From a virus, in the IMG/VR virus record IMGVR_UViG_3300002835_000026: a DNA stretch of 64,000 nucleotides; one strand, given 5' to 3'. Positions 14,641 to 48,216 of the stretch are shown in pieces; position 1 is the first letter of the stretch; every line of letters begins with the position of its first letter. The translations under genes and the position numbers were made by a program. The notes below the pieces were generated by a model. That model was not told where the DNA came from. It worked only from the letters and a program-made list of their open reading frames with translations, and ran no database searches.

Positions 14641-16317
14641 TTAAATAGTATTTAATCCTTGGATATAGATCTTACCATAAAATTCTGGTCTTAACATTTT
14701 CTTAGCGTAACGAGTTAATAAACCTTTACGTGGAGTAAATGTATCTGGATCGTACACAAGTGGAGTCATAATTAATGGAACATATGGAGCAAATACAGCA
14801 CCAGCTTCTAAGAATTGTGAACCTCTGTAACCTAATAACATGATATTTTCAGTCATGTAAGGGTTTTTGTAAACTGTGTAACGGCCATTTAATTGACCTG
14901 CTTTTTGTACACCGAAAGCGTATTCCATTTGAGCAGCATCACCATTGTTGTTAGAAGCAAATCCTGGGATTGATTCTAATACTGTAGCTACAGTTGGAGA
15001 TGTAACGATGAAGTTAGCACCACCTCTTAAAGTTAATTGGTGAATTTTGTTGCTTAATTTTTGGATTTTAGTTCCTAAAGTTTGGAACCATTGGCCTTGT
15101 GTGTTGTAGAACGCTGAACCAGCTGTTGAGAAAGTAGCTGTAGCTGGGTTGTAAACGTTGTTGTTAACTGTTGACCAGTACTCAGTACCCGCAGCAGCAT
15201 CTTCGATCAACATATCTAAGATTTCAAGATCAATTTCCATTGAAATGTACTCAGACATGATGTTTGTTACTTCAGCTTCAGCATCAATGTTTTGGTAAGC
15301 AGCTAAATCTTGTGAGAATTCAGGTGTCCATACTGCTTTCAATTTTTTAGTTTTAGCAGTGATGGCTTGTGATTGCATTTTAACATTAATCTCAGGAATA
15401 ACGATAGATGAGTTATCTTGAGCATTTGGAACTGCGAATGATGACGAATCTTCAAAATCACCTACGTTATACGGGCTCATTTGAGTAGCTTTGTTATACA
15501 AAATTGTATAAGCACCTGAGTTAGCAATTGTAGCTGAAGAAGCACTCACAAAGAATGTAATAGTGTTGTTTGTGTAATCAAATGTAGTAAACTGTTGTAA
15601 GTTATTAGCAGCAGTAATAGCTGAACCTGATAAAATTAAGAAACCTCTAACAGCATCCATATCAAATGAAGGGATGTTTGTAGAAGCAGTTACTAATGTG
15701 ATTGCTTTGATTTGACCTGCAGCAACTGAAGCTGAGTAATCTGAATCAAAGTTAGTTGTAGCTAACGTACCTGAAACGATAAGTGAACCAGTTGCAATTG
15801 TGATTGCCGATGATGAGAATTGGTTGGTAGAGTAAGTGAAACGACCTGTTCCGTATAAACCACCTGATGGTGCTGGAGTTGCAAACGGGAATTCACCTGT
15901 TGCATTTCTGTTACCATACAATGAACTACCTACTGCAAATGGATCTTTAGCTGTTCCGTATTGGAAGTCTAAGAAGAACACAAGACCTGAAGGCATTGAC
16001 ATTGGTTGAACTGAAACAAATTCTTTTGCTGCAATTTGAGCAAATACTTTACGTACTAAAGGTAAAGCAATACCAGCCCAGTTTTCTGATTGACCAACAG
16101 AGAATGAACCTGCTGATGAACCTCCACCTGTATCTGATTGTTCCATAACTAATTGCTTAGCTTGGTTTTCTAATAATAAAGACATGTTGTTTGCCTCTAC
16201 ATTTGTTAAGCCTTCTAATAGACCCGTTTTGTTCCATTTAGAAGACAATTTAGCTGCATCGCTTTGGAGTGATTTCCAAGGACTAGCTGATTCTAATAAT
16301 GATTGAATTGTGCTCAT
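14641..16317 (-). CDS. gp23: Major capsid protein, T4 gp23-like
   Basis: LLENQ, LPLVRKVF, VSVQPMSMPSGLVFFL, TAKTKKLKAVWTPEFSQDL, APYVPL, TPRKGLLTRY; strongly biased codons. Confidence 0.95.
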   Translation of the reverse strand: MSTIQSLLESASPWKSLQSDAAKLSSKWNKTGLLEGLTNVEANNMSLLLENQAKQLVMEQSDTGGGSSAGSFSVGQSENWAGIALPLVRKVFAQIAAKEFVSVQPMSMPSGLVFFLDFQYGTAKDPFAVGSSLYGNRNATGEFPFATPAPSGGLYGTGRFTYSTNQFSSSAITIATGSLIVSGTLATTNFDSDYSASVAAGQIKAITLVTASTNIPSFDMDAVRGFLILSGSAITAANNLQQFTTFDYTNNTITFFVSASSATIANSGAYTILYNKATQMSPYNVGDFEDSSSFAVPNAQDNSSIVIPEINVKMQSQAITAKTKKLKAVWTPEFSQDLAAYQNIDAEAEVTNIMSEYISMEIDLEILDMLIEDAAAGTEYWSTVNNNVYNPATATFSTAGSAFYNTQGQWFQTLGTKIQKLSNKIHQLTLRGGANFIVTSPTVATVLESIPGFASNNNGDAAQMEYAFGVQKAGQLNGRYTVYKNPYMTENIMLLGYRGSQFLEAGAVFAPYVPLIMTPLVYDPDTFTPRKGLLTRYAKKMLRPEFYGKIYIQGLNTI

Positions 16318-16345
16318 TTTTTTTAAAATTTTTTTTTAAATTGTT

Positions 16346-17404
16346 TTATTTAATAATTCCTGCTATTTTTTGCATTCTTTTGAATGTGTCATTAACTTCT
16401 ACAATAGGTTTTCTTGCCGATGGCATGATACCTGTTGTTTTAGATGCTAAACTAGTTTTCAATGATTCATTAACATGTGATTTAGAAGTTTCTTTTAAAC
16501 CTTCTGATAATGTTTCGAATACTAATTTAGTTTCTTTTACTGTTGATGCTTTATCAAATGCATTTAAAACCTTTACTTTTTGTGACTCGGTTAAGTTTTT
16601 AGCTTTGAAAATTTTGTTAGTGTAAAGTAATTTCGCATTTAACAAATTAACTTCATTGATGTCAGTTCTCATAGTAGCAATAGTTGACATAGCTTCTTCT
16701 AACTCTTTTTTAAGTTTAGTCATTTCTTCTTTGTCTTTCTTGTCTTCTTTGTCACCTTTTTTCTTAGCTTCGTCTAATGCGATTTCAGCTAAAATTTCAT
16801 CAATTGAAACTTCTTCTTCTTCACTTTCCATTTCTTCGCCTTCTTCACCTTCCATGCCTTCACCAGCTTCTAATTCGCCAGATTCAACCATGTCTTTAAT
16901 TACGTCTTCAATGAATGATTTTAACTCTTCTTCAGTCATGTCTTCAATGTTGATTTCTTCTTCAGTTTCAACTTCTTCTTCACCTTCTGCTTCGTTTAAT
17001 TCTTCTTTTTTCATTTCGTCGTCTTCAGCATGCATGTTTTCGTCTTTCATGTCTGCTTCTAATTCAGCTAATAATTCGTCAAGATTAAGTTCATCTAATT
17101 CTTCTTCAGCTACATTACCATGTGCTGTTGGACCTTTTGGGTTGTTGATTAGATCTTCTTCTTCTTTAACTTCTTTGTAGCCCATTAAGTTTTCTTCTTT
17201 TTTAGAATACATTTCTTCCATATCATCCATCTCTGCTTCTTCAACATCCATTTCTTCCATTTCTGCAAGTTTAGCTGATAGCATAGATTTTAATTGTGGA
17301 GTAAAGTGTTCTTCAAGTGCTGCTTTTGCGCTTGCTATTGCTGTTTCTTTAACAACTTTAGCGTCTTCGATTGCTTCTTTAAGCAAATCTCTGTTTTTAC
17401 TCAT
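16346..17404 (-). CDS. Prohead scaffold / core protein (gp22-like); start probably MSKN at 17404
   Basis: Very acidic coiled-coil protein directly upstream of the capsid gene; many L-x-E sites; ends FKRMQKIAGIIK. Confidence 0.75.
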   Translation of the reverse strand: MSKNRDLLKEAIEDAKVVKETAIASAKAALEEHFTPQLKSMLSAKLAEMEEMDVEEAEMDDMEEMYSKKEENLMGYKEVKEEEDLINNPKGPTAHGNVAEEELDELNLDELLAELEADMKDENMHAEDDEMKKEELNEAEGEEEVETEEEINIEDMTEEELKSFIEDVIKDMVESGELEAGEGMEGEEGEEMESEEEEVSIDEILAEIALDEAKKKGDKEDKKDKEEMTKLKKELEEAMSTIATMRTDINEVNLLNAKLLYTNKIFKAKNLTESQKVKVLNAFDKASTVKETKLVFETLSEGLKETSKSHVNESLKTSLASKTTGIMPSARKPIVEVNDTFKRMQKIAGIIK

Positions 17405-17541
17405 TTGTCCTAAAATTTTGTTTGGGAAATACACTTATTTAAAGTGTAATAGAATTGTTATTTATAGATACTGCAAATGCGATTGCGGGCAGTATATTCT
17501 AATATACATATGTCCAGATTATCTAAAACACACAGAAGTGT

Positions 17542-17569
17542 AAAGAGAAAGCTCTTCTTTTGGAAGAGC
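17542..17569 (-). terminator. Intrinsic terminator after the nuclease gene
   Basis: gctcttc-ttttg-gaagagc hairpin followed by TTTCTCTTT on the minus strand. Confidence 0.65.
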
Positions 17570-18170: not shown

Positions 18171-18776
18171 TTAGAATAACGGACATGATCCATTAGCACA
18201 TAGAATATCAGTAATAATTGAATTAATTTTACCGTATTGATTTGTACCTGGAGTATATGATTCGTTTAAGTTGGTTGGTTGCATCCATGAACCAGGATTA
18301 GAAGGTGTTGAAACAAAATCCCAACATAGTAATTCAAAGTCATCTTGTACTTCCATTACATTACCTTTTTGTTCTAACGAACCCATTCCTCTTGATGATA
18401 CACCTACTGTAATACCACTTTCAATTAATGCTTTTAAGATGTTACCAGATGGAGTAGGTAAAATTTCAATTAAACCCATTACATTATCTCCATTCCACCA
18501 GCATTTTTTAATATTATGTGAAACATTTTTTAAGTTAATAATTGAAGAATCTGGGTGGTCTAATTCACCTAATGCTCTGTTTTCTCGAACTGATTCCATG
18601 TAGCGATCCATTTCACGTTCCCATAATTCTTTAGCGTAATATCTACCATTACCGTTTTTTACTTCGACAGTAGCTAACACACCTTCTACTAATATGTTAC
18701 CTCCAGGATTAGTTCCTTCAGTTAACCTAACAGCTTTAGGAGAAAATAATTGTGTTTCAATTAATACTTGTCTCAT
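18171..18776 (-). CDS. gp21: Prohead maturation protease, T4 gp21-like
   Basis: NGNGRYY, GELDHP, VSH, TPSGNI, GVSSRGMGS, DFVSTPS. Confidence 0.93.
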   Translation of the reverse strand: MRQVLIETQLFSPKAVRLTEGTNPGGNILVEGVLATVEVKNGNGRYYAKELWEREMDRYMESVRENRALGELDHPDSSIINLKNVSHNIKKCWWNGDNVMGLIEILPTPSGNILKALIESGITVGVSSRGMGSLEQKGNVMEVQDDFELLCWDFVSTPSNPGSWMQPTNLNESYTPGTNQYGKINSIITDILCANGSCPLF

Positions 18777-18782
18777 ATTACG

Positions 18783-20120
18783 TTAATTTGTATTTCTATT
18801 ACTTATAATTTTTTCAATTGCATTTTTTCTTCCTCCAAATCCCTTAACACCTTGACCACTTAATATATCTCTTAATTCATCATCTGTTATATTACGATCA
18901 TTAATTTGCTTTTGGTATTTCATTAACAACATGTTTTCAGATCTATTATCTGCCTCTTTACCTAACTCTTCAGGTGATCGCTTTAATGGTGTTACATCTG
19001 GGTTTGAAGAAGGTCTTGATAATATATCTCGGTCATGAATACCTTCTTTAATAGTTTTAGCTTTAGGTAAATCACCATATCCGCTTGACTTATATTTACC
19101 TTTAGGTGCAATTGTTAATTTTTCAGTTTTAAATCCTACTCCTTTAGTTCCAAACATAGCATTTTTAGCATAATAGTTTATGTCTTTAACCATGTTTTTA
19201 AGTACAATTTGTTTTAACTCATCAACTGTTTTAGTTTTGTTTTTAGGATCTTTCATTTCAGCATAGTAGCCATTTAAGAAAGATGTACCATAAACATTAT
19301 CAATATTTTTCTTATCTTCAGTATTATATTGATCAGCTAAATCTTTTTTAACTTGTTTAGATGGTTTTTTAAACTCATCATAATCACCATATAGTTTTCT
19401 ATTTGGAACACCAATGACTTCTGATAATGTTTCTTCTTTAACTGGTCTTAACAACATTGGTTTAGTTACAAATAACTCTCTACCATCTTCTGTCTTGCCT
19501 TTAATTTGTTTAATTTTGCCATCTACTTTATCTACTAAAGTAATTTCTACTTTATCATCACCAATCATAGCTTTATCACCAACTTTAACTTTAGAGCCAA
19601 ATGATAAATCACTATGTGAAGTACCTAATACATCACCTTCATTTGTATTTAAAAGAGGTTTTATATCTTGTGTAAATATTTCAGTTTCAGTGAATTTCTT
19701 TCCATCAGCCATTATAATCATATCAAGATCTTCTTTTTTAAGTTCTCCTGATTTAAGAGCATTAAATAAATCAATAGCTCTAGTGATGTTTTTATCATTT
19801 AATAATTTAGCACCTCCATTACGCTTTATCATACCTACAGCCTGCCCAAAGGGACCATCAGAAGCTGAAGTCATATCTACTGCCTCATTACTTGTATTTT
19901 CTCTAAAAATTTCTAACCAAGATGATGATGGTTTGTGACTAATTACACCACCAATACCTTCACTTAAAATACTTTTTGATTTAAGTACACTTATAGTTGT
20001 ATTATAATCAGAATATTGATTAATATAATTTGGAAATAAAATTCTTGCTTGTTTTAAGAAATGATCTTTGTTTCCTTTTCCTTCTTTAATAAGGATGTAT
20101 TGTTCTTGTAATGTTTTCAT
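18783..20120 (-). CDS. Hypothetical head-associated protein with CTS-like N-terminus (MKTLQEQYILIKE)
   Basis: 445-aa ORF in the head cluster; several [LI]-x-E sites. Confidence 0.6.
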   Translation of the reverse strand: MKTLQEQYILIKEGKGNKDHFLKQARILFPNYINQYSDYNTTISVLKSKSILSEGIGGVISHKPSSSWLEIFRENTSNEAVDMTSASDGPFGQAVGMIKRNGGAKLLNDKNITRAIDLFNALKSGELKKEDLDMIIMADGKKFTETEIFTQDIKPLLNTNEGDVLGTSHSDLSFGSKVKVGDKAMIGDDKVEITLVDKVDGKIKQIKGKTEDGRELFVTKPMLLRPVKEETLSEVIGVPNRKLYGDYDEFKKPSKQVKKDLADQYNTEDKKNIDNVYGTSFLNGYYAEMKDPKNKTKTVDELKQIVLKNMVKDINYYAKNAMFGTKGVGFKTEKLTIAPKGKYKSSGYGDLPKAKTIKEGIHDRDILSRPSSNPDVTPLKRSPEELGKEADNRSENMLLMKYQKQINDRNITDDELRDILSGQGVKGFGGRKNAIEKIISNRNTN

Positions 20121-20359: not shown

Positions 20360-21196
20360 TTAGTCTTTAAATAAGTTTATTAAATCGTTTAAATAATCGT
20401 TTGCTAAATCAGTACCATATAACACATTAAAACTAGGTTTATCTTTATAATAATTTAATGTTTTTTCTTTTGCGTTTTGTAATAATGGTAATAATTCGTT
20501 TAATTTTTGTTCTAATGTATCAAATCCTTCTAATCTAGATTTGATAAATATTTTTAATTCTGGTGTATCTATGTTTAAAGAATCAATATAAGCATCTACA
20601 TCTAATTGTGCTTCGTTTACATTCTCTTTCCACATTTGTTTAACTTCGATTCCTTTCGCCTGTTGATTCAGTTTTTTTTGATTAACAGGTTTGTAACCTA
20701 GTTTATAGTAATAGTTATTTGTTGTGCCTTTAGAATTAGTATTTTTTTTATAAGCTGCATCTGTACCTGCTTTTGTAGCTGTTTGTGGTCCTTCACCTGG
20801 ACTAAATGCCCCTGCTGATGCTCCACCTCCTGTACCTGACTCTTCTTCTAAATCAATATTTAAATTGTTAAATTTTTCTTGGTTATAATTATCTAAATAT
20901 GGTTTTAAATCTTGTTTCCAAACTGCGGTTTGTGAAAAAGCTATATTATCTGCTTGTCCATGCTCTCCTTGTGTAGCTTTATCTAAGTCTTGGATAGTAA
21001 TTTTACCAGTCTCCATAGCTTTTTTAAATGTTCTAAATTCATTAGATGGGCTATAGATTTCTAGTTTATTTTTTAATAATTCTTTACCACCAAAAAGCCA
21101 AATCCACTGAAGAGCTGTATCAAATTGTCCGTCAATACCTTTATGAATACTAACTTCTTTTAATGTTTGTTTAATGATACTTTTTAACTTATCCAT
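20360..21196 (-). CDS. Hypothetical head-cluster protein
   Basis: 278-aa ORF; N-terminal KLKSIIKQTLKE motif. Confidence 0.6.
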   Translation of the reverse strand: MDKLKSIIKQTLKEVSIHKGIDGQFDTALQWIWLFGGKELLKNKLEIYSPSNEFRTFKKAMETGKITIQDLDKATQGEHGQADNIAFSQTAVWKQDLKPYLDNYNQEKFNNLNIDLEEESGTGGGASAGAFSPGEGPQTATKAGTDAAYKKNTNSKGTTNNYYYKLGYKPVNQKKLNQQAKGIEVKQMWKENVNEAQLDVDAYIDSLNIDTPELKIFIKSRLEGFDTLEQKLNELLPLLQNAKEKTLNYYKDKPSFNVLYGTDLANDYLNDLINLFKD

Positions 21197-22078: not shown

Positions 22079-23956
22079 TTATTCTCTAATTTGGGATTCA
22101 TCTAATAGCGAATCTCCTGGTTTTTCTTGACTAAGACATAATTTTTTGTCAACTTGTTCAAACAAACGTTTATTTCTTGCGAAAGCTGACTTAGCATTTT
22201 CTAAAGCAAACGGTTTGGTTGTTGATTTACCATATCCTGGTTGGTCATCTGATTTCATATCTTTAACACCTAATCTATCACGACCTAACGCGCTATCTTG
22301 TGTGTTAATATTAGATACTTTTTCTTTTGGACGACCTAATTGTGTATCATTATTATATCCTGGTGGTAATTCACCTTCTGGTCTGCCGTTTTTACTATAT
22401 AAACTGGCTAAATCATGTGGTGTACCATAAGATTTACCTGTTTCTACTGGATCATTACCTTCTTCTTTAATTTGTGCGATTCTAAATTCACGTTTTGCAT
22501 CTTCAATCATCATATCTCTATATTCATCATATGAATCTTCAGAGAATCTGAATACATTGTCATAAACCCAATCAGTAGGCATTAATTTAGTTTCAATGAT
22601 GTTTTTAGCTAAATCAACTTTTTCCTTCATTAACATAATACGTTCTTGATCATATATAATAGACGGTGTGGTTAACGATAACTCGAAGTTAGTTAATTCA
22701 TCATTAGTATAACCTTGAACATATAAATGTACTAATGCGATTTTATATAATTCAGACAATGTAATACGTTGAATACGATCAATTGTACGAGCAAAACGAA
22801 TATCTTCCGCTGCTAATGTTGCTTTACCTTGTAAATCTTTATCATAACCTAAAAATGCTTTAGGTACCTTTAATGCTGCAAATAATTTATCTCTTAAATA
22901 TGCAACGTCTTGAATACCATCGTAATCTAAACCTTTAGTATTTTCAATACGTGTTGCTTGGTCATTACCTCTTACTGGAATATAAAAATCTTCTAGTAAG
23001 TTTTGCATGTTATATTTTACGTTATATTCACCTGTCTTTTGATCCATTAATGGAGTACGTTTCATTGAACTAATAGTTTTCTGCATAAATGCTTCAACTT
23101 CATTAGGCGGGATAGAACCAACATTAATAAAGAAAGTACGTTTTTCTGGTGAACGAACTACACGATGGATTAACATTGCATCTTCCATTAACGCGTATTG
23201 TTTATATAAACGACGAGCTGGTTCTAGATAAGATCTACCATATGGTAAATAATTAACATCTGTAATTAATCTAAAGTGAGCAACCTCATAGTTTTCAAAG
23301 AAAATACCTGGTTCGTTTTGACGGCCTAAATTAGGTGTATTGTAATAACCATCACCTGATAAAAATCCTTCAGGTTTAAATTGGAAACGAACAGACGCTG
23401 GTTTGTCTTTATCATAATTTTCTTGTCTTTCAATATGATACGCTGTGTATGGAATAACATTATATACACCAAATTTTTCAGCAATTTCTAATCTTAAGAA
23501 AAAATCACCATATTTACACATTTGACGAATCCAAGACCATAAATTAAATTCGATATTTAATACATCATAAAATAAGTTATATAAAATTCTTTGAATGTTT
23601 TCATCTGATGAACGAATAGATAATACTTCACCCATATCATCTTTTAATGTAGACTCATCAGCTACAATATCAAGTGCAGAACCAACAATTGCATCCTGAT
23701 CCATGATATCATAGTCTGAATATAATTGGGTACGTAAGTATTGATAATTTAAATTTAATTGAGCTCCATAAAGTGAAGATGCATTAGTTGAATAGATTCT
23801 ATTATATCTATCCATTAATGAGTTAGTAGCGATATCACCTGTTTGTTGTATGGTGTTAACGTCCATTACTTTTAATTGATCACCACCCTGATTTCTCATC
23901 ACTACATCAGTAGAGAACAGTCGTTGTAATCGTGAAAATAAGCCTTTGTCTGCCAT
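22079..23956 (-). CDS. gp20: Portal vertex protein, T4 gp20-like
   Basis: GRSYLEPARR, LMEDAMLIHRVVRSPEKRTFFINVG, LEDFYIPVRG, KLFAALKVP. Confidence 0.93.
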   Translation of the reverse strand: MADKGLFSRLQRLFSTDVVMRNQGGDQLKVMDVNTIQQTGDIATNSLMDRYNRIYSTNASSLYGAQLNLNYQYLRTQLYSDYDIMDQDAIVGSALDIVADESTLKDDMGEVLSIRSSDENIQRILYNLFYDVLNIEFNLWSWIRQMCKYGDFFLRLEIAEKFGVYNVIPYTAYHIERQENYDKDKPASVRFQFKPEGFLSGDGYYNTPNLGRQNEPGIFFENYEVAHFRLITDVNYLPYGRSYLEPARRLYKQYALMEDAMLIHRVVRSPEKRTFFINVGSIPPNEVEAFMQKTISSMKRTPLMDQKTGEYNVKYNMQNLLEDFYIPVRGNDQATRIENTKGLDYDGIQDVAYLRDKLFAALKVPKAFLGYDKDLQGKATLAAEDIRFARTIDRIQRITLSELYKIALVHLYVQGYTNDELTNFELSLTTPSIIYDQERIMLMKEKVDLAKNIIETKLMPTDWVYDNVFRFSEDSYDEYRDMMIEDAKREFRIAQIKEEGNDPVETGKSYGTPHDLASLYSKNGRPEGELPPGYNNDTQLGRPKEKVSNINTQDSALGRDRLGVKDMKSDDQPGYGKSTTKPFALENAKSAFARNKRLFEQVDKKLCLSQEKPGDSLLDESQIRE

Positions 23957-23974: not shown

Positions 23975-23984
23975 TTATAAATAT
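23975..23984 (-). promoter_or_regulatory. Putative late promoter ATATTTATAA
   Basis: Recurrent motif upstream of the portal gene. Confidence 0.6.
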
Positions 23985-25561
23985 TATCGTATTAACCAAC
24001 TAATGTCTTCATTTCCGCCCATACCATTTTCTATACTATATGGGTTAGGAACACTAGAACCATACGCTCCTGTAAATCCTGTTCTGTTAACAGACATATT
24101 ACTTAATGTTGCTCTAGACATTTCTAGGTTTTGTGATTTAAATCTTAATGATGTATCTCTTAAATACATTCCAATTGCAAAACTCATAATTAAGTCATCA
24201 TTGTATCCTGATTGTGCTTCAGGACGACCATTTTTCCAAATGAATACTTTCATTTCTTCTAGTAAACGTTTAGATTGAATAACAACACTTTTATCACCTA
24301 TATACTCTCTAAATTTATTAACTATTAAAGGACGAGTTTTCAGTGATGTTGTAAAACCAGGTACTAATTTTGAATTATCCATATATTGGTCAAAATAAGC
24401 ATCAGCATTATTACTAGCATCACTTTTAGGTGAATAATATAAATTCTTATATCCACGTTCTTGAATTGCATCTAATGCTGACCAACCAATATTAGCATTT
24501 TCTACTACTAATAAAGCTTGGTTATATTCTGTAGCTAAACCAACTAAGAAAAATCCAAATTCTTTAGGTGGTAATTGACCTTTATATTCTGCTACCTGTG
24601 TATTAGATTCAACATGTATAACATGGGCTGCGGAAAAATCCTTGCCATCACCCCGTGCTACATCGGCTATAACCATATATGATTGAGTATAGTCCGCCGG
24701 TTCCCATATCCATAAGTTACGGTCAACTCCGCGGCGTTCTAGCGGTTCTTTTATTGTGGTTTGAGATATAAATTCAATCCATTCTGAATAGAATACTGTA
24801 TCACCTGAAGTACTAAAATCACAATCACACTCTTGAGATGCTAATCTAGGATCACCTAATAATTCGTCTTGTTTTTTTCTCCATGCTTCATTTCTTTCAG
24901 GATGGACAAACCAAGGTAATTTAATAGGTAAGAAATCGTTTTGTTGGGCTTCAGCTTTAACCCATGTTTGATGAAACCAATTACCTGTACCATAAGGAGT
25001 AGATAATACAATAGCACCACCACCCGTAGCTAAGGTTTGTTGAGCAGAAGCCCAAATTGTATCAATACCTTCAATAAATGCTGCCTCGTCAATTAATAGT
25101 AAAGATACAGCTTCAGATCTACCAGCATCACCAGCAGCTGATACTGCTTTAATTTGAGATCCGTTATTTAATCGTAATGTAAGTTTATTATTTTCGTCTG
25201 CTGTTACTTTTAACCATGATGGTAAATTTTCATACATGAATTTTACCTTAGTTACCATGTTTTTAGCAGTTTCTTGCTTTGTAGCAATACAAAGTACGTT
25301 TTTATCTTTATGGAATAACATTAACCATAAAGAATAACCAGCTGATAGTGTTGAAATACCTAATTGTCTTGATTTAAGTACTATACTGTATGGATTGTCT
25401 TTCCATAAATTTAATACTTTATCTTGAAATGGATATAAATTAAACATGATTCTTCCTCTTTGAGGATGTTGAATATAACAGTATTTTTTCATAAAGTGGC
25501 TTGGGTCACTCGCACACTTTACATATTCCTGTCTTATAACTTCACGTAAGTCTTGACTCAT
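23984..25561 (-). CDS. terL: Terminase large subunit
   Basis: LYPFQ, KSRQLGIST Walker A, LLIDEAAF Walker B, STPYG, ADVARGDGKDFS, NDDLIMS nuclease motif. Confidence 0.96.
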   Translation of the reverse strand: MSQDLREVIRQEYVKCASDPSHFMKKYCYIQHPQRGRIMFNLYPFQDKVLNLWKDNPYSIVLKSRQLGISTLSAGYSLWLMLFHKDKNVLCIATKQETAKNMVTKVKFMYENLPSWLKVTADENNKLTLRLNNGSQIKAVSAAGDAGRSEAVSLLLIDEAAFIEGIDTIWASAQQTLATGGGAIVLSTPYGTGNWFHQTWVKAEAQQNDFLPIKLPWFVHPERNEAWRKKQDELLGDPRLASQECDCDFSTSGDTVFYSEWIEFISQTTIKEPLERRGVDRNLWIWEPADYTQSYMVIADVARGDGKDFSAAHVIHVESNTQVAEYKGQLPPKEFGFFLVGLATEYNQALLVVENANIGWSALDAIQERGYKNLYYSPKSDASNNADAYFDQYMDNSKLVPGFTTSLKTRPLIVNKFREYIGDKSVVIQSKRLLEEMKVFIWKNGRPEAQSGYNDDLIMSFAIGMYLRDTSLRFKSQNLEMSRATLSNMSVNRTGFTGAYGSSVPNPYSIENGMGGNEDISWLIR

Positions 25562-32857: not shown

Positions 32858-33388
32858 TTATATATTTTTATTTATTAGTATATATAATTTATATTCATCA
32901 TCTCCCCAACTGCCACCTAAAGATTCAACTTTAGTCACATATGGTAATTGTTTCATCATTTTTTCAGCTAAACTTTGATATATTCTATCTCGTTTACTAT
33001 TTCTACTTGTTTCTTCATCTGCCTCATTAGCAGGATGGCATTCTAATGTAAATTCACCATAGCCTTTAAAGTCAATTTCAATAAATTTTTTTAGAATATC
33101 AACAACAGTATTTAATACTGCTATACCGTCTCCTGATTCAGTTTGAGCCCATGGATTTCCTTTATTTAAACCAAAACTAACATCTAATATTAAATCATCA
33201 TTAGTTATATCTTCAGGTTTAGCTTTAGAATTCACTAAAGATATCCAGTAATCTTCATATGAATTATTTATAGAAACAAAAATATTGTTTCCTTTTTTAT
33301 TTATAAAATTATAACGTACACCATCACTTGTTTTTTTAGGACCTGTGAATGAGTAACTTTCTGTTAATAAATCAATGAGTTTGATCAT
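32858..33388 (-). CDS. Hypothetical protein with CTS-like N-terminus MIKLIDLLTE
   Basis: 176-aa ORF. Confidence 0.65.
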   Translation of the reverse strand: MIKLIDLLTESYSFTGPKKTSDGVRYNFINKKGNNIFVSINNSYEDYWISLVNSKAKPEDITNDDLILDVSFGLNKGNPWAQTESGDGIAVLNTVVDILKKFIEIDFKGYGEFTLECHPANEADEETSRNSKRDRIYQSLAEKMMKQLPYVTKVESLGGSWGDDEYKLYILINKNI

Positions 33389-34009: not shown

Positions 34010-34327
34010 TTATTTTTCTCTAATTAACAATTCGCCTAATACTTCTAAACGACCAACTTCACGTTGGAATTCATTTTGAGTCATATCTAATGATATTTTT
34101 TTATAGGTTTCATCGAATTCTTTTTTAGCTGCTTCTTTATCAAATTTACCTTTTATAGCTTTTTTATAATAAGATGGTTTCACATTAAAGTGAGTATATG
34201 TTAATAAAGCATCGCCGCCTTTTTCTTTAGCATTAGCTATAATTTTTTCAGCACCTGCTAAACGATTTTTAGCAAATGTTTCAAAACTTTCTTTAGCTTC
34301 AGTTAATAATTGAATAAGATTAATCAT
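34010..34327 (-). CDS. Hypothetical protein with CTS-like N-terminus MINLIQLLTE
   Basis: 105-aa ORF. Confidence 0.65.
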   Translation of the reverse strand: MINLIQLLTEAKESFETFAKNRLAGAEKIIANAKEKGGDALLTYTHFNVKPSYYKKAIKGKFDKEAAKKEFDETYKKISLDMTQNEFQREVGRLEVLGELLIREK

Positions 34328-34767
34328 TTTTTTATTTTTTTAAATGGAGCATATCCTGAACCATATGGAGCTGATTTGCCAGATTGAGGATCTGGAGTTT
34401 CTGATATAGTCCAAGTTTTAGCATCATGTGCTTTTTCTTTCAATTTAAATGTAACAACACCACGAATTGATTTAATATCTTTTTCTACTTTAGTTACAAT
34501 ATTAGTATTGTCATTTAATCCTTTAGGGAATGGTGATGGATCAATTTTAATATCTAAATAAGCATATTCATATTGTGATGATGGATTACCTGACTGATAT
34601 TCTCTGTTATTAACAATAGTTACACCTAATACAGCTCTAACATCAGATAAAATGTATTTCATTTTAGCAACTTTAGGGTTGATAACAATAACACCACCAA
34701 TGGCTAATACCTTTTTTGATGAAGCATATTCTTCTTTAATTGCTTTTTTAATTTCTGATAGTTTCAT
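34324..34767 (-). CDS. Hypothetical protein (start probably MKLSEIKKAIKEE)
   Basis: ORF track 34324..34785; the ATG at 34767 carries the shared N-terminal motif. Confidence 0.6.
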   Translation of the reverse strand: MKLSEIKKAIKEEYASSKKVLAIGGVIVINPKVAKMKYILSDVRAVLGVTIVNNREYQSGNPSSQYEYAYLDIKIDPSPFPKGLNDNTNIVTKVEKDIKSIRGVVTFKLKEKAHDAKTWTISETPDPQSGKSAPYGSGYAPFKKIKK

Positions 34768-34778: not shown

Positions 34779-35426
34779 TTACCAAAAACCGGTAAAAGTA
34801 GTTTTAAATCCTAATAAGTTTGCGTAACGAGGTAATCTACATGACCAGTAACGTGCTGTTGTTTTATCTTTAGCTTGTGGACAATTCATTCTATCTGAAA
34901 ATGCTTTACGTGCTTTAGGATTGTTTAGTTTTGCTCTTAAAGCTCCACCAGCCATACCAAATGATATTTTTTTAACTTTATCACCGTCTTTAACATAAAC
35001 ATAGAATTTTTTAGATCCACCACGTTTTGGTTTACCTAATGCTACTTCTTTACCTTGGTATTTAGCTTCAGTTATTATTTCCATTAATGGTAAATCTAAA
35101 GGAACAAATTCGCCTTCATATTTTGCCCACCTGCCAATATCAGTACGTTCAAATATTTTTTTATCTGTACCTTGTAATTCAATAATACCTTTAGACCATA
35201 ACATTCTCGCTTCAGTCAATAATTTTTGATGAGCGAAACTGCCTGGGCGATATATATTCTCGGTAAGCTGTATTTTACTGTCTATATGGTAACGCATCGC
35301 CTCAGATATCGCCATATTGTACTGCTTAGACTCTACGAGTAAAGGCGGTGTATCGCAGTGTTTGCATGAATCGGTTACTTTGTAATTTTGCAAAGTTTCT
35401 GAGATAAGTTGTTTTAATTTATTCAT
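34779..35426 (-). CDS. Two-module hypothetical protein with a basic Cys-containing C-terminal domain
   Basis: MNKLKQLISE; ITE|AKY junction; KKFYVYVK...ARKAFSDRMNC...ARYWSC; late motif at 35429-35438. Confidence 0.7.
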   Translation of the reverse strand: MNKLKQLISETLQNYKVTDSCKHCDTPPLLVESKQYNMAISEAMRYHIDSKIQLTENIYRPGSFAHQKLLTEARMLWSKGIIELQGTDKKIFERTDIGRWAKYEGEFVPLDLPLMEIITEAKYQGKEVALGKPKRGGSKKFYVYVKDGDKVKKISFGMAGGALRAKLNNPKARKAFSDRMNCPQAKDKTTARYWSCRLPRYANLLGFKTTFTGFW

Positions 35427-36463: not shown

Positions 36464-36753
36464 TATTTTACTTCAATTTGCTTCAAATTTGAAAATATTT
36501 GAGTTAATAAATTGTCGTCATTTGTTTTAATCATAGCAATCATAGTATCAGCCAATATTTTATTAGCCGCTACATTCAAAGGTTTATTACTTTTTACTAA
36601 ATTAATAGTAGTAGTAAATTTAGAAGGATCAAAACCTTCAACACCTAATTTTTTAAATAAATCTGTTTTGATTTGACCTTGAAGTTTTGGTTCTTCAGTA
36701 GTGACTTCTAAAATTTGTTCTCTTATTAATTTTTTAAGTTCTGATTTTTTCAT
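36463..36753 (-). CDS. Hypothetical protein, N-terminus MKKSELKKLIREQILE
   Basis: 96-aa ORF. Confidence 0.65.
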   Translation of the reverse strand: MKKSELKKLIREQILEVTTEEPKLQGQIKTDLFKKLGVEGFDPSKFTTTINLVKSNKPLNVAANKILADTMIAMIKTNDDNLLTQIFSNLKQIEVK

Positions 36754-38653: not shown

Positions 38654-40776
38654 TATCTTAAAATTCTTTTTAACATTGGAAACATATTTTCATTAATTTG
38701 ATTTAATTTACCTTTAGCTTTTTTAGCTTCAGCCATATCAGGATAACTATCATCATAAACATCCATGCTGTCATCATAATTATCATCATTATCATCACCT
38801 GGATTATCTCCAGCATCATATTGATTTAAGAAGTCTTCCAATTTCATTCCTGGATTTTTCTGTATTGCTGTAAACATATCATTTATTATGTCTTCATTGT
38901 CCATATTTGATAAAATATCATATATAGCATCAGCACTATCATCATTTATAGCTTCATTAATTGGAGCTGTATCTAAGATATGAGCTTTAGTAAAATAAGT
39001 AATTGTATTAGCAATTTGAGTAATTAATTTTTCATCACCTAATGCTTTTGCTTCAGCATATGCTGCTTGTAAGTTAGATTGAATACCTGATACTTCAGTT
39101 GTTTTACCAGCCATCATATCTGATTCAGGAGCATCAACTACTTCAGTATCGTCTACTGTTATGTCTTCAACTTCTTTATCTTTTTTAGCTTCACTAAGAC
39201 TGTCATTAGCTAACTTACCCATGTCCACTAAATTTTCTAATTCTTCACGTTCATCATTATTAAGATCTGTGCCATCTTTAAATTTAGCAACAGAAATATA
39301 AACGTCAGAATAATCATTATAAGATCCACCTTCTACTTCAATTGAATTAACATCAACTTCTTTTCCGTTTAACATTACTTTGTTTGATTCTGCTTCTTTT
39401 AAGGTAGTACCATCAGAAATTCCTTTAATACTTGAATGTAACATTGCTAAGAAATATTTCATTTCTATTATTCTATCTTCCATCTCTCTATCTGTGAATT
39501 GACCAAACATGACAAGATTTTTAACTATATCTAAATTCCTAAAAGCAGTTTCTATAGCAGTAACAGTTTTTCTTTCAACATCTTTAGGCTTAGTAAAGTC
39601 CCAATTATCTCCAATAGTAGATATAGCTTCATCTAAAGGATTTTGCAACATATCTTCTAATTTTTCTGCTTCTTCTTCTGATAAACCAGGATAAGAGTTC
39701 ATTAATTCTTCAGCATCATATTCACGCATCTCATCTATAAAAAGATCACCTTTATTTTTAAAATATTTAAATAAAAACTCAGCATCATAGTTGTTGTCTT
39801 CTAATTCTACTTCTTCTGCTTCAGCTAATGGATCATACATGTTATTTAAAGCACCTGGTTCATCAATATCTTCTGTAGAATCTTCATTTAATTCAGCTAA
39901 AATCATTTCTTTGATTTTTGATTTTAGTTTAGATTTAGTCATCTTTTCTTTTTCGATTTCTTCACCTTTTTTAACTCCAGCACCATATATATTTTCTTCA
40001 CCTTTTTTACCTAAACGTTTAGCTGATTTAGCTCTATCATAATCAGTATCACCTTCGCTCATTTGTGTATTATTTAATTTAGATAAATCGTTTGGATCAA
40101 TAACAACTATTAAATTATCAATTTCTTGACCATATCCTATTGGACTATCACCTACTTCATTTTTTACTCCAATAGAAGTTAAATAATTACTCATTTCATC
40201 TGCTAATTTATCTACTGTATTATTTAAAAATGATTTTTCTTTATCTTTTAAATAATCTCTATCACCAAAATCCATAGAATTTTCTATTTCTTTAAAATTA
40301 TCACTGTTAGTAACAACTAAATAAAGTTCATTATCTACTTTATAGTATTCAACATTTTTAAATTTACCAAAACTTACTTTTGAATCTTTGTAAGCACCTT
40401 CACCTTCATTCATATCATCTAAGAAAAAGTCTTGACCTGGGAATAAAGTAGCTAAATCAGTTAATTTTAAATTAACTTGATAAATAGATGGAGCCATTTC
40501 TTGGTATACTTCTGAATTATATTTGTCTGCTATAGTTTGGATCATAATGTCATCATTTGATGCAATCATGACTTTGTTTTTTGCTGGGTATACCCAGATG
40601 TCTAGTGTTTCATCAGCATTTTTATTTGGAGGTACCATGTGGTAGATATTATCATCTCCCATGATTCTTTTCCATGATGAAAAATTTAACATGTTAGTAT
40701 TAGATCCTTGATTTTCTTTAATAATACCCGCAAGTTTTTGCATGCGAGCTAATTGTTCATTTAATGTTGGTTTCAT
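38653..40776 (-). CDS. Acidic modular polyprotein with N-terminal RMQKLAGI
   Basis: 707 aa; MKPTLNEQLARMQKLAGIIKE; late motif at 40795-40804. Confidence 0.7.
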   Translation of the reverse strand: MKPTLNEQLARMQKLAGIIKENQGSNTNMLNFSSWKRIMGDDNIYHMVPPNKNADETLDIWVYPAKNKVMIASNDDIMIQTIADKYNSEVYQEMAPSIYQVNLKLTDLATLFPGQDFFLDDMNEGEGAYKDSKVSFGKFKNVEYYKVDNELYLVVTNSDNFKEIENSMDFGDRDYLKDKEKSFLNNTVDKLADEMSNYLTSIGVKNEVGDSPIGYGQEIDNLIVVIDPNDLSKLNNTQMSEGDTDYDRAKSAKRLGKKGEENIYGAGVKKGEEIEKEKMTKSKLKSKIKEMILAELNEDSTEDIDEPGALNNMYDPLAEAEEVELEDNNYDAEFLFKYFKNKGDLFIDEMREYDAEELMNSYPGLSEEEAEKLEDMLQNPLDEAISTIGDNWDFTKPKDVERKTVTAIETAFRNLDIVKNLVMFGQFTDREMEDRIIEMKYFLAMLHSSIKGISDGTTLKEAESNKVMLNGKEVDVNSIEVEGGSYNDYSDVYISVAKFKDGTDLNNDEREELENLVDMGKLANDSLSEAKKDKEVEDITVDDTEVVDAPESDMMAGKTTEVSGIQSNLQAAYAEAKALGDEKLITQIANTITYFTKAHILDTAPINEAINDDSADAIYDILSNMDNEDIINDMFTAIQKNPGMKLEDFLNQYDAGDNPGDDNDDNYDDSMDVYDDSYPDMAEAKKAKGKLNQINENMFPMLKRILR

Positions 40777-40807: not shown

Positions 40808-41080
40808 TTATTTGTTAAACTTAACTTTTGCTTTTTCTGTATTGGATACAAATTGTTTACCTTTTTTACTACCCTCAACTTTTTTGCGTGTTGTTGCGGC
40901 ACGTTCTGCTTTAGTTAAGCGTTTTGCTTTAGCTAATGGTAAGCAACGTTGTGTTGCTTTACCTTTAGGCATTGTACCACAGTCACCTGCGATGTTACCT
41001 TGAGTATCTATACGGACCCATTTTTCTTTTTTAAACCAGTCACGTAGTGATTCTTGTACTAGACGTTTTAAATTGTCCAT
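40808..41080 (-). CDS. Small basic Cys-containing hypothetical protein
   Basis: LRDWFKKEKWVRI...CG...CLP. Confidence 0.7.
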   Translation of the reverse strand: MDNLKRLVQESLRDWFKKEKWVRIDTQGNIAGDCGTMPKGKATQRCLPLAKAKRLTKAERAATTRKKVEGSKKGKQFVSNTEKAKVKFNK

Positions 41081-43455: not shown

Positions 43456-43851
43456 TTATTGCTTTAATTTTTGAATTAATTCTTTAGCTTTAGCTTTTTT
43501 CTCATCAATATCTTTTTTAGATGTTCTAAATTCATCCATTGATGATTTTAACTCATCAATTTGCATATCACGTTCTTTTAAAACCATAGTAGCTGTTCTG
43601 CCAGCATCTGATTTGTTTTTATACATACCCATGATATTTTCATATGTTAAGCCATTTTTAATTTTTTCAGCTAATGAAAAAAGATCAGCTTCAAACATTA
43701 TTTCTTCTTTTGTAGATTTAGTACCTGGTTTAGATACAACAAAGAATTTACCTACTTCATCAACTACATCATAGTTTTTAGTGATAATTTCTTTTGTTTC
43801 CATTGTTTCTTCTTCTAAATTTTCTCTTAAAAGGTCAATTAATTTTTTCAT
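43456..43851 (-). CDS. Hypothetical protein with CTS-like N-terminus MKKLIDLLRE
   Basis: 131-aa ORF. Confidence 0.65.
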   Translation of the reverse strand: MKKLIDLLRENLEEETMETKEIITKNYDVVDEVGKFFVVSKPGTKSTKEEIMFEADLFSLAEKIKNGLTYENIMGMYKNKSDAGRTATMVLKERDMQIDELKSSMDEFRTSKKDIDEKKAKAKELIQKLKQ

Positions 43852-43870: not shown

Positions 43871-46800
43871 TTATTTATTTTTAATACTGTCTTCCCAATT
43901 TCTAAACATCATATTACCTTTTTTGTAAGCTTCTCTTTCAATTTCAGGTAAATCTCCGTCTTCATTTGTATTTGTTGTACCTATATTATTTAATCTATTA
44001 TCTAAATTTTGTTCATGATGTATCATTTCATGTGAAAATGAACGTAAAACATCTTTAGGATGTCTATTCATAGTAAATAAAGTAATTGATTTTTCTTCTG
44101 GGCTGTAAAATGCTGTTTTGCCAAATACATTTTCAGCATTTGCTTTATCATTGTTAATAAATTTAACAACAGGTAATGGCTTAATATTCATTCCTTGATT
44201 AACCATATATTTAGTTAATTCAGGAATATATTTTTTATAGTCATTATTTTCTTTACCTTCTTTTAATTTTCCTTGTCCACCTGCTTTTAATAACGGACTA
44301 TCTTTAGGTAATTTTGTATTAATATAATCAATAGTATTTTGAATTGTTTTATATAAATCTTTTTGAAATTCTTTATATCCTTCTGGATTATATTTTCTTA
44401 TTTGTTCTATATTTGAGTGAAAATTAGTTAATGTACTTCTTGAATCCCACCCTGGATTTGTATTTATTCCTAAAAACCATCCTCCCCAATCTGCTATTTT
44501 TCTTATAAATTTTTGAATATCATTACCTTTTTCTCCTTTAGATAACCAATCCATTGTACTTTTATTAAACATTTTATTTTTACCAGAATAAAAATCTAAA
44601 ATATCTTGATAATAAGAGTTTAACTCAAGTACAGCTTGTTTTAAATTATCTTTATTATTATTTATATATTCATAACTATTAAATTTTATAGCTTCTAAAA
44701 ATTCACCTGTTTGTGATGGAAATTCTTCCCAAGTACCATAATATAATTCTGGTTTTGAAGGGTCATATTTAGTTTTTAATGGCTTGTGATTTACAGCTGG
44801 ATCTTTTGCATGAATTAATTCATGACGTAAAGAAGATAAAAGAGCTTCTTTAGGATTATCTCCAGTTAATGTTTTCCAAATAGATTCTAATGTTCCTTCA
44901 AAAGCAGGAAACCAATAATTTCCATTAATTCCTATAAAATTATCTTTAAAATTAGTATTATCTTGTGTTAAAAACTTAGCTGCTGATCGGGTGTCACCAT
45001 CATCATAAATGTATGGTACAAATTCTGCTTCTTCTCCTGAAGCCATTTTGTATTTGATAGGATTAGTTAATCCTACTTTAAAGTCTTTTTCTTTTAAAGC
45101 TTGTATAAAAATAGGAATTAAATTTCTTAATTTTGTTTCTTCTTCATCACTTAATGATATAATACCTTCTTTTAAATCTTCTACTTTATTAACAGCTAAG
45201 ATATAATTTTTTATGTTATCAATTCCACCTTCAGGACCTTTAAAAGATATTCTTTCTTCTTGTTCATCATAATCACCAGTATTATTAAAGAAATCTCTCA
45301 CTACACTTTCAGGTTCATCTTCTAACCAATTATATTCCCAATTGTCTTCATAGTTCCATCCCGGTCTGTAGGCAAAAGGTGTTATTTTATATTTGTCAGA
45401 TAATTTGTCTCCATCTAATGTAATTCTATAATCTGTTTTTACTCCAAAATTAGATCCTTTTTTATAGAAATTTTTATTACGAGTAAATGAAATATAATAT
45501 AATTCATTACCTAAATAATTTTCTTCAGAGGTATTTATTTTATTAGACTGAAGGATGCCTTTTAATCCATCGGCTGATGTGTAGTGATATAAAGGACCAA
45601 CTTGCTTACCTTCTTCTAATCCACCAGGTGTATCTAATTTTTTACCTGTTTTAACATCTGTATCATAATCACAAGTTCCTTCATTTAAATCAGGATTATT
45701 ATCATGTCCACATATACTACCATCTGGTAATTTGTTATGGCAAATATATAAATCCTTACCACCATCAGCTAATTTCCAGGTCCAGCCACAGTTATCACAA
45801 ATAACTTCTGTAGCTGTTACTAGTTCTTGAATGACAGTAGATAAAGTATTAAATATTTCTGTTTTTTCTTTTACTTTTTCAGGAATAAAAGATAAAAATG
45901 CTTCTTGTCCTTTTTTTAATGCTTGACGAGCATCAGTTCCACTTGTATCTGATTGAGTAATTATAGGAGCTAATTCAACATTTTCATATTTACCTATACC
46001 TTTAGTTTTTGATGCTAAGTCTACAAAATCATCATCTTTACCATCTCTAGCTCCAATAACCCATATTACATCTTCATCTTGATGATTTTCAATATACTCA
46101 TATATAGCTGTAATTGGTGATTTAGCTGGTTCTACTTTTACTTTTAAAGGTAAGTATTTTTTATATATATCCCAAGTTAAAAGTGATTCAGCTTGAGTAA
46201 TTCCATCTCTTGTTCCAGAACCAACATAAATAATAAATTCATCTATTTGAGGAAATTGCTCTAATGCTTTTTCAACAACTTCAAAATGACCTTTGTGAGG
46301 TGGTTTAAAACCACCACCATAAAGTGCTACTGTTTTCTTTGAATCTGCTTCAATTAAAGGTAAGATTAATTCTCTAACTAATCCTTTAAATAATTTATTT
46401 TCTAATAAACTACTAACTGCGTCTAATGCTGCTTGTTTATTATCACCTTTAGGTGTATCAACTTCTCCACTTTTAATAGACACCATTGATTTAAATATAC
46501 CTTTTATTCTATTTTTAGAACGTTCGTTTTTTAATTTAGATTTTAAATCTTGTAATAATGTTTTAAAATCACCATCTATATTGTAGTTGTCAAATAATTT
46601 TTTAACAATACTCCAATTTGAAGATTTCCAAACCTCAGTTCTATTAAGTTCTTTAAAATTATCTAATGTTACTATACGTAATGTTAATCCAGCACTTGAT
46701 AAATTAAATTCATATTCTTGATTCGCTTCAAGTTCAGGTACATTAGTAATACCTAATCTAGTGAATATTTTTTTAGGATCTTCTTCTAAACAAATTACTT

Positions 46801-47254
46801 TAGCTAAACCTAAAAGTAAACCTTGTACTTCAGCTGGATAATCTAAGAATGTATTTTTAAATGTTGATTCTTCTTCACTAGTAGAAATAATATTATCTAT
46901 TTGAACAAATTCATCAGACATACCAACTATAGGGTATAATACAGTTACTAATTCACCACTACTAAGTGATTTTTTTCCTTTATATTTATTACTTTTAAAA
47001 GGTACAATAACTGAATCAGGGAGAGAAGCAAAATATTTAGCTAAATCTTGTTTAGCTAATTTTTTATCATTACTATCTAAATGAACAATTAAATCAATGT
47101 CACCAAAGTCTTGTTTAGTTCCTGTATTATAAGAACCAGTTGCTTTAGCGTCCTTAAATCCAGGGAATTTAGATAATACTTTATTTATATAATCTTGAAC
47201 AGTTTTTTCTACTGCTGCCCTAGATATTCTATTTCCACCTGCTGAACCTGACAT
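43871..47254 (-). CDS. Polyvalent protein: Pol-beta nucleotidyltransferase + HIGH nucleotidyltransferase + Zn finger + ADP-ribosyltransferase-like domain + two HExxH metallopeptidase-like domains
   Basis: GSY...GDIDL and VQID; GGGFKPPHKGH; CDNC...CH; LYHYTS/ISFTR/EQEE; RHELIH; SHEMIHH. Confidence 0.75.
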   Translation of the reverse strand: MSGSAGGNRISRAAVEKTVQDYINKVLSKFPGFKDAKATGSYNTGTKQDFGDIDLIVHLDSNDKKLAKQDLAKYFASLPDSVIVPFKSNKYKGKKSLSSGELVTVLYPIVGMSDEFVQIDNIISTSEEESTFKNTFLDYPAEVQGLLLGLAKVICLEEDPKKIFTRLGITNVPELEANQEYEFNLSSAGLTLRIVTLDNFKELNRTEVWKSSNWSIVKKLFDNYNIDGDFKTLLQDLKSKLKNERSKNRIKGIFKSMVSIKSGEVDTPKGDNKQAALDAVSSLLENKLFKGLVRELILPLIEADSKKTVALYGGGFKPPHKGHFEVVEKALEQFPQIDEFIIYVGSGTRDGITQAESLLTWDIYKKYLPLKVKVEPAKSPITAIYEYIENHQDEDVIWVIGARDGKDDDFVDLASKTKGIGKYENVELAPIITQSDTSGTDARQALKKGQEAFLSFIPEKVKEKTEIFNTLSTVIQELVTATEVICDNCGWTWKLADGGKDLYICHNKLPDGSICGHDNNPDLNEGTCDYDTDVKTGKKLDTPGGLEEGKQVGPLYHYTSADGLKGILQSNKINTSEENYLGNELYYISFTRNKNFYKKGSNFGVKTDYRITLDGDKLSDKYKITPFAYRPGWNYEDNWEYNWLEDEPESVVRDFFNNTGDYDEQEERISFKGPEGGIDNIKNYILAVNKVEDLKEGIISLSDEEETKLRNLIPIFIQALKEKDFKVGLTNPIKYKMASGEEAEFVPYIYDDGDTRSAAKFLTQDNTNFKDNFIGINGNYWFPAFEGTLESIWKTLTGDNPKEALLSSLRHELIHAKDPAVNHKPLKTKYDPSKPELYYGTWEEFPSQTGEFLEAIKFNSYEYINNNKDNLKQAVLELNSYYQDILDFYSGKNKMFNKSTMDWLSKGEKGNDIQKFIRKIADWGGWFLGINTNPGWDSRSTLTNFHSNIEQIRKYNPEGYKEFQKDLYKTIQNTIDYINTKLPKDSPLLKAGGQGKLKEGKENNDYKKYIPELTKYMVNQGMNIKPLPVVKFINNDKANAENVFGKTAFYSPEEKSITLFTMNRHPKDVLRSFSHEMIHHEQNLDNRLNNIGTTNTNEDGDLPEIEREAYKKGNMMFRNWEDSIKNK

Positions 47255-48216
47255 TATGCTGCTTTATATTTATTTAAATTAGAATCATCAGGTAAAAATT
47301 TACCTTTAAGACCTAAGCGACTTTGATTAGTAATCCAATATTCTTGAAGATCTAATGGAATATCAGCTCTAGTTGAGTCTAATATTCTTAAATATATATC
47401 TAATACTTGATTTAATTTATCTTTAGGTAGTTTTTTCTTTAAAACATCCATTAACTCAAAATAATCATTTAATACATCTTGAGATAAATTAAGTTTAAAT
47501 CCTTGGTTTAATACATCTAATGCTTCTTGAGGATTAGTCGCTACTATATCTCCTGTTTCTTTATCCTTAACACCAGTACCATGACTAAAAGTTTTATTTA
47601 ATGCTTGGAACATAGCTACCATTAATTGGGTTCTATGTAAACCTTTTACATTATCTTTATAGGTATTTGAATAGTAACTAAAATTTAGCCAATCTAAATT
47701 ACCTACATTAATATCTATTTGTACTGATTTATCATTAAGTATTTCTCCTTTTTCATTGTATTGAGGAAAATTACAAAATATTGAGCCATTACCTGCTGCT
47801 TTTAAATCAGTGTCTATATATTCTGATTTCTTTTCAAGATTAGTAGCTATTAATTCTAACATAGCTCTTAATTTGCTTTGAGTTTCTGATGCTGAACGTG
47901 AACGTTTTCTAATTTTTTCATATAGAGTGTCAAATTCAGCTTTATCAATATTCCAATTAGATAATAATGGATTACCATCTTTATCCATAAATTGGTCAAC
48001 ACTCATACCTAAATCAATATCACCAGATTCATCTTTTTTACCAACTGAACCTAAAGTATTAAAGTTAAATTTTACTTTTGGGTATACTTTATTTAATTCA
48101 GCAGTGAAATTTTTAAGAGTGGGTTGGATGTATTCTTTTTTGATACTAGAGGTGGTGCCAAATACGTTGCCACCTTCTAAAGTTATTGATTTTAAAAGCT
48201 CAATTAAAGAAATCAT
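47254..48216 (-). CDS. Pol-beta superfamily nucleotidyltransferase
   Basis: LGSVGKKDESGDIDLG and VQIDIN; late motif at 48229-48238. Confidence 0.75.
   Translation of the reverse strand: MISLIELLKSITLEGGNVFGTTSSIKKEYIQPTLKNFTAELNKVYPKVKFNFNTLGSVGKKDESGDIDLGMSVDQFMDKDGNPLLSNWNIDKAEFDTLYEKIRKRSRSASETQSKLRAMLELIATNLEKKSEYIDTDLKAAGNGSIFCNFPQYNEKGEILNDKSVQIDINVGNLDWLNFSYYSNTYKDNVKGLHRTQLMVAMFQALNKTFSHGTGVKDKETGDIVATNPQEALDVLNQGFKLNLSQDVLNDYFELMDVLKKKLPKDKLNQVLDIYLRILDSTRADIPLDLQEYWITNQSRLGLKGKFLPDDSNLNKYKAA

Follow-up and report, generated by a model that had tools for sequence, protein, structure and literature searches.

The internal proteins IPII and IPIII of phage T4 carry a 10-residue N-terminal capsid-targeting sequence (CTS), to which the propeptides of IPI, gp24 and gp22 are related, and the prohead protease gp21 removes these segments at L/I-x-E sites (PMC9026906, PMC3012670) by cleaving after the Glu (PMC9026906). 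For IPIII, residues 1 to 10 are enough for encapsidation, residues 4 and 7 being the main determinants of targeting and residues 8 and 10 those of processing, and the protease is located in the prohead core and active during prohead maturation (PMC9026906). Propeptides on head and ejection proteins of the giant phages phiKZ, 201phi2-1 and SPN3US are cut by a diverged gp21-like protease (PMC9026906, PMC5694885, PMC10052503). Here we describe short N-terminal leaders ending in a hydrophobic-x-Glu motif on unrelated proteins encoded in a 64,000-nucleotide stretch of viral DNA (IMG/VR record IMGVR_UViG_3300002835_000026, hereafter called the window), and we regard it as fairly probable that they are the counterpart, in a so-called Far-T4 phage, of the T4 capsid-targeting sequence and propeptide. 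A literature search for the leader found no publication describing it.

The nearest phages to the source of the window are Flavobacterium phage immuto, Microcystis phage Mel-JY01, the uncultured 484-kb phage LR756508 and Rhodothermus phage RM378, which places it among the "Far-T4" phages. It is an uncultured water phage and distant kin of T4, with immuto as its closest cultured relative (55% identity between the capsid proteins). All genes between 10.6 and 63.6 kb lie on the minus strand, and like T4 the phage has a gp20/gp22/gp23-type head module and a gp21-family protease of the Peptidase_S77 (S77) type (Table 1). This protease matches the solved structure of T4 gp21 (PDB 5JBL, E 8.7e-18) and retains the equivalents of the catalytic residues His85 and Ser140.

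Leaders on the genes of the window

Eighteen genes in the window start with a leader of this kind (Table 1), and the approximately 20 tagged genes of the initial annotation were therefore about right. All 6 N-termini that it had quoted sit exactly at their minus-strand gene starts, and its 10-residue leaders stand as far as they were quoted, but not as a complete list, since the genes starting at 35426 and 41080 and the scaffold gene starting at 17404 are tagged as well. The core LI[DEQ]LL occupies residues 4 to 8 in 4 genes and occurs within a gene only once in the window; the similarity among these 4 proteins stops at the leader, and they match no family in Pfam and PHROGs, where the tag-bearing proteins gave nothing informative. 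In immuto, the MIKLIDLLTE leader is identical and the protein bodies behind it are 30% identical, and nearly all members of 80 loci related to the MINLIQLLTE gene keep M-x-x-L-x-x-[LI]-[LI]-x-E. Orthologues of the gene with leader MKTLQEQYILIKE have [LI]-x-E↓G at the same place (AIQE↓G in immuto and DLKE↓G in the complete 173-kb relative G001; arrows mark cleavage positions). The same kind of start is found on the scaffold and on proteins at head-core positions, and in both immuto and G001 the tagged genes are grouped within 25 to 35 kb adjoining the head module. Ordinary enzymes encoded in the same block of the window are without a leader: a primase, a PD-(D/E)XK nuclease, an FAD oxidoreductase, a phosphoesterase, an Fe-S protein and an AAA_28 kinase.

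The capsid protein had also been listed as starting with a leader, MSTIQSLLE. This start is present (position 16317, minus strand), but the propeptide predicted from the alignment to T4 gp23 comprises about 59 residues, of which the 9-residue start is at most the first site. As a separate observation, residues 3 to 81 of the capsid protein are similar to residues 67 to 140 of the product of head-module gene 20360-21196 (E 0.001), and residues 81 to 172 of the product of gene 18783-20120 are similar to residues 15 to 116 of the same protein (E 6e-5), so that head-core proteins and the capsid protein seem, on these similarities, to have a propeptide-like segment in common.

Table 1. Head genes, leaders and putative promoter sites in the window.
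Feature	Position	Strand	Basis
Large terminase	23984-25561	-	T4-type head module
Portal_T4 (gp20-type portal)	22079-23956	-	T4-type head module
Prohead protease, Peptidase_S77 (T4 gp21 family)	18171..18776	-	Pfam 2.6e-31; PDB 5JBL match
Putative scaffold	16346-17404	-	T4-type head module
Gp23-family major capsid protein	14641-16317	-	Pfam Gp23
10-residue leader MIKLIDLLTE of gene 32858-33388 (176 aa, family not known)	33359..33388	-	Read at gene start
10-residue leader MINLIQLLTE of gene 34010-34327 (105 aa)	34298..34327	-	Read at gene start
10-residue leader MKKLIDLLRE of gene 43456-43851 (131 aa)	43822..43851	-	Read at gene start
14-residue leader MISLIELLKSITLE of gene 47254-48216 (Pol-beta-fold nucleotidyltransferase)	48175..48216	-	Glu before GGNVF in relatives
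13-residue leader MKTLQEQYILIKE of gene 18783-20120, T4 gp68 position beside protease	20082..20120	-	Orthologue comparison
Predicted propeptide of gp23-type capsid protein, residues 1-59, sites LLE9 and LVME59	16141..16317	-	Alignment to T4 gp23
10-residue leader MSKNRDLLKE of putative scaffold (ATG at 17404)	17375..17404	-	Motif and position
10-residue leader MNKLKQLISE of gene 34779-35426	35397..35426	-	Motif at residue 10
10-residue leader MDNLKRLVQE of gene 40808-41080	41051..41080	-	Motif at residue 10
12-residue leader MKKSELKKLIRE of gene 36463-36753	36718..36753	-	Same motif, longer form
Further 12-residue leaders	27222-27257, 32561-32596, 34732-34767, 63560-63595	-	Same motif
21-residue RMQKLAGI-type tag of gene 38653-40776, end IIKE↓N	40714..40776	-	Sequence
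Other copies of RMQKLAGI-type tag	31155-31217, 31394-31459	-	Sequence
14-residue leader of head-module gene 20360-21196, end TLKE↓V	21155..21196	-	Sequence
ATATTTATA(A) sites (putative late promoter)	63609, 53192, 48238, 40804, 35438, 23984, 22068, 13688	-	Motif search

Correspondence with T4 and giant phages

We compared the leaders with the T4 protein starts of NC_000866: MKTYQEFIAE for ipII and ipIII, MAKINELLRE for gp24, MELITELFDE for Alt and MLKEQLIAE↓A for gp22, with FLTE preceding the mature end of gp23. In both systems, unrelated proteins have an N-terminal element of 10 residues that is hydrophobic at positions 4, 7 and 8 and has Glu as its last residue, and scaffold and head-core proteins start alike. 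In the phage leaders, Leu4, Leu7, Leu8 and Glu10 are fixed, positions 3, 6 and 9 vary and the residue following Glu is free; MKKLIDLLRE of the window is closely similar to the start of T4 gp24. When the capsid proteins are aligned, LVME↓Q of the window falls on the FLTE↓A site of T4 gp23, and 4 relatives have IVSE↓A, LVTE↓A, LISE↓A and LLKE↓A; in 6 relatives altogether the site lines up with that of T4, and its hydrophobic-hydrophobic-x-Glu form is kept. This agreement of maturation sites argues that a protease specificity of L/I-x-E type was kept in the lineage.

The differences from T4 concern scale and cargo. The consensus is MIKLIDLLxE rather than MKTYQEFIAE, and some 18 tagged genes in this window alone contrast with about 10 processed head proteins in T4. 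A 12-residue form and a 21-residue RMQKLAGI-type tag exist besides the 10-residue form, the motif is retained at the joints of multi-domain fusions, and the cargo, as judged from sequence alone, includes families of nucleotidyltransferases, Zeta-toxin-like kinases and HD hydrolases. With phiKZ, 201phi2-1 and SPN3US, the phage has in common many head proteins with sites for cutting after Glu, redundant propeptide sites and a big set of candidate packaged proteins. However, those phages have an S/A-x-E motif and longer, non-uniform propeptides, whereas the module described here is uniform at 10 or 12 residues and has Leu or Ile as the third residue before the cut (Val at the capsid site of the window).

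Predicted cleavage after the leader Glu

Comparative data support cleavage directly after the leader Glu, above all in the family of the nucleotidyltransferase encoded by gene 47254-48216, which has a Pol-beta fold (fold match and the nucleotidyltransferase signature G-S...D-x-D) and whose domain begins with GGNVF. Its immuto orthologue (52% identical) starts with M-GGNVF, exactly past the predicted ITLE↓GGNVF site. Among 150 diverse representatives of the family, at least 35 are leaderless and start in the same way, and 28 have leaders of 4 to 20 residues, with Glu directly before GGNVF in 26; where the domain lies inside longer fusions, it is preceded by x-x-Glu, usually [LI]-x-Glu, in 15 of 15 cases. 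Glu is thus invariant only where something precedes the GGNVF domain, which matches the prediction for a cleavage site. Close relatives of the window gene begin with MISLIQLLKE followed by IITE↓GG, i.e., 2 tandem sites, and the window copy has lost the first Glu; MISLIELLKSITLE is therefore present as the initial annotation had it, but as a degenerate double site rather than a simple leader. In an AlphaFold 2 model of this protein, the leader is a detached helix of low confidence (predicted local distance difference test score below 50, compared to about 95 for the body). The neighboring gene 43871-47254 encodes a protein of 1127 residues with nucleotidyltransferase and cytidylyltransferase-like domains and a weak ADP-ribosyltransferase match, and other phages have the GGNVF nucleotidyltransferase as the rear part of a fusion protein, joined through [LI]-x-E to cytidylyltransferase-like domains in front of it.

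These data bear on 2 alternatives. The leader could be an uncleaved N-terminal helix for some other partner, through which a protein docks on a phage complex or is recognized by a modifying enzyme, and a portable tag on many unrelated proteins would suit any model with a shared partner. Yet docking alone does not account for a boundary Glu that never varies, for leaderless forms beginning just behind it or for the Glu at fusion joints, and no candidate partner enzyme, the radical S-adenosylmethionine type included, was found in the gene block around the tagged genes of the window. We consider this explanation unlikely. The second alternative accepts removal by a protease outside the prohead but no role in capsid targeting, for example a propeptide that would keep an enzyme inactive until it is cut or would liberate a required Gly-Gly end. 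Several cargo proteins are indeed toxin-like enzymes, and the Glu before GGNVF in nearly all forms that are not leaderless implies selection for a defined mature end. However, the conserved hydrophobic positions 4 and 7 are those that serve targeting rather than cutting in T4, position 9 and the residue after Glu show no constraint, and the T4 protease cuts within the maturing prohead, so that a propeptide of this kind appears quite improbable.

Portability across viral contigs

A search of IMG/VR with degenerate DNA encoding M-I-[KNSR]-[LF]-I-[DEQH]-[LF]-[LF]-x-E gave at least 120 loci. Among the viral-contig matches listed, 106 of 122 (87%) lie at the first ATG of an open reading frame (ORF) of at least 50 residues. 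With the same pattern in prokaryote genomes as a control, ORF starts make up 14 of the 120 matches listed (12%), with Phe and Leu mixed as under chance, and 2 of these 14 resemble mis-binned phage contigs. The viral matches listed comprise 89 distinct leader proteins in at least 38 unrelated body families, and those recognized are Zeta_toxin/AAA_33 kinases, an HD phosphohydrolase, an NT5C-like nucleotidase and small zinc-finger-like proteins. The Zeta_toxin/AAA_33 P-loop kinases are the biggest leader-carrying family among the matches listed. The NT5C-like enzyme is leaderless in G001 but begins with 14 leader residues in immuto and with 10 in other contigs. On such comparisons, the tag is a portable module that has been gained, lost or kept at the joints of fused proteins in evolution.

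The viral matches also speak to the idea that the leader is an expression device, i.e., an A+T-rich coding start that aids translation initiation or a repeated DNA element. The leader is indeed encoded by very A+T-rich codons, and some tagged genes have a promoter-like ATATTTATA immediately before them, but synonymous codon use for Leu and Ile is the same in leader and gene bodies and Phe, which the search pattern permits, makes up only 1% at positions 4, 7 and 8, implying selection on the peptide and not on the DNA. The DNA upstream also differs between tagged genes, and on codon usage and this lack of upstream conservation we rejected a DNA-level signal as very unlikely.

Position statistics and one motif in 2 lengths

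Position statistics were calculated for 520 ORFs, comprising those of the window, of the whole immuto genome and of G001. With 1.0 expected per position, 14 of the 520 proteins have the motif [LIVFMY]xx[LIVFM][LIVFM]xE ending at residue 10 (P 5e-12) and 12 have it ending at residue 12 (P 1e-9), and its ends across residues 8 to 14 sum to 40 versus 7.1 expected. The looser [LIVFM][LIVFM]xE peaks at the same 2 positions. Although L-x-E alone is common in a proteome rich in Leu, Ile, Lys and Glu and this looser motif occurs at about 0.5% of all positions, the 2 peaks and the prokaryote-genome control led us to reject chance or composition as a practically negligible explanation.

The twin peaks mean that the 10-residue leaders and the 12-residue leaders of MKxSELKxLIxE type are one motif in 2 lengths, and since the RMQKLAGI-type tag likewise ends in I-x-E, all three types probably feed the same protease. 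The initial annotation had treated the 10-residue leaders as a separate "third address", which does not agree with this. RMQK[LI]AGI forms the N-terminus of 3 proteins (gene starts 31217, 31459 and 40776), where I-x-E then follows, but also the C-terminus of the scaffold 16346-17404 and of the product of gene 31484-32596; at the scaffold C-terminus it is kept in immuto, Mel-JY01 and LR756508.

Further starts of this kind were noticed in relatives. Four paralogues of immuto (1803, 103806, 117631 and 118632) have a common start of 12 to 13 residues, MENFDLKKFLVE↓N, with a cleavage-type motif at its end. Within 20 kb on each side of the capsid gene of LR756508, some 25 small ORFs start with MK-[LIV]-x-E-x-K-L-R-x-x-I-x-E-E, i.e., with leaders of 12 to 14 residues and a hydrophobic-x-Glu end; this is a much bigger array of the same kind of tag.

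Weighing a proposed T4-like packaging signal

Leaders that are real, non-random, portable and selected as peptides, together with the match to T4 positions and the presence of the protease, give good support to the interpretation as a T4-like targeting sequence and propeptide. Of the T4-analogous signal proposed in the initial annotation, the notion of a separate address is not supported; leader length, key positions 4, 7, 8 and 10, the gp21-family protease, the capsid site, portability and the comparative indications of cutting all speak for it. By analogy with T4, the leader would form a short amphipathic N-terminal helix, with hydrophobic residues at -6, -3 and -2 from Glu, that docks the protein on the scaffolding core of the assembling prohead. 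The S77 protease would then cut after the Glu of hydrophobic-hydrophobic-x-Glu, as the comparative site logic suggests, and free the mature protein inside the head. The tagged proteins would thus be present in the virion and, if T4 is a guide, the freed cargo may leave with the DNA at infection and be injected.

Among contigs longer than 120 kb with a true leader, 7 of 8 encode S77, and all 5 with a completeness of 87% or more are among these. The eighth, which bears a leader and is 70% complete, gave no S77 match, and no complete leader-bearing genome without S77 was found among the contigs examined, all of one lineage. Two contigs in which the pattern matched by chance outside an ORF start are without S77, and 9 mid-size leader-bearing contigs that were searched are fragments (11% to 50% complete).

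Several points weigh against the interpretation as a packaging signal. All contigs come from a single phage lineage, so that common descent confounds the link between leader and S77, and the 9-residue capsid start is not kept in Mel-JY01 or LR756508. The existence of leaderless orthologues means that packaging is not essential for the function of these proteins, some of the cargo is enzyme-like (Zeta-toxin/AAA_33 kinase, HD hydrolase and NT5C-like) and could equally work in the cytoplasm, and some tagged proteins have extra internal hydrophobic-hydrophobic-x-Glu sites. Our literature search found no virion proteomics for immuto, Mel-JY01 or Far-T4 phages.

A putative late promoter

The coding strand of the window has 11 copies of ATATTTATA(A) and the other strand has one. 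The sequence is found 2 to 20 nucleotides ahead of the ATG in the portal gene, 2 more genes of the head or neck, one gene of the tail module and 4 tagged genes, and in immuto and G001 the genes that follow it are those for terminase, portal, sheath, tube and baseplate. Its reverse complement is the T4 late promoter TATAAATA, and it probably acts as a late promoter whose 5' leaders are very short. It adds little to the argument about the N-terminal leaders because only 3 to 4 leader-like genes per genome follow it.

Implications for Far-T4 phages

T-even phages and a few of their cargo proteins are the source of what is known about the capsid-targeting sequence of T4. Here a CTS-like design with its own consensus occurs in a large uncultured aquatic lineage and on at least 38 unrelated families. 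It is possible, though we propose this only tentatively, that the 10- and 12-residue leaders and the RMQKLAGI-type tag make up a lineage-wide address code by which Far-T4 phages that infect aquatic Bacteroidota pack a big and rapidly changing set of enzymes and small proteins into the capsid for injection, with multi-domain cargo cut apart at the same motif. Candidate cargo of such a code would be Zeta-toxin-like kinases, nucleotidyltransferases, HD hydrolases and polyproteins bearing an ADP-ribosyltransferase, and candidate injected proteins for host takeover or anti-defense could then be picked out directly in metagenomes. Since Flavobacterium phage immuto is cultured, a T4-like role of the tag is open to direct test.

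If the leaders do work like those of T4, they would provide a simple sequence rule for proteins delivered together with the DNA, which are likely to be host-takeover or anti-defense factors of the first minutes of infection, and would serve as a natural packaging tag when Bacteroidota phages are engineered. Loading of cargo into the capsid would then be an old and expandable trait of the T4 superfamily.

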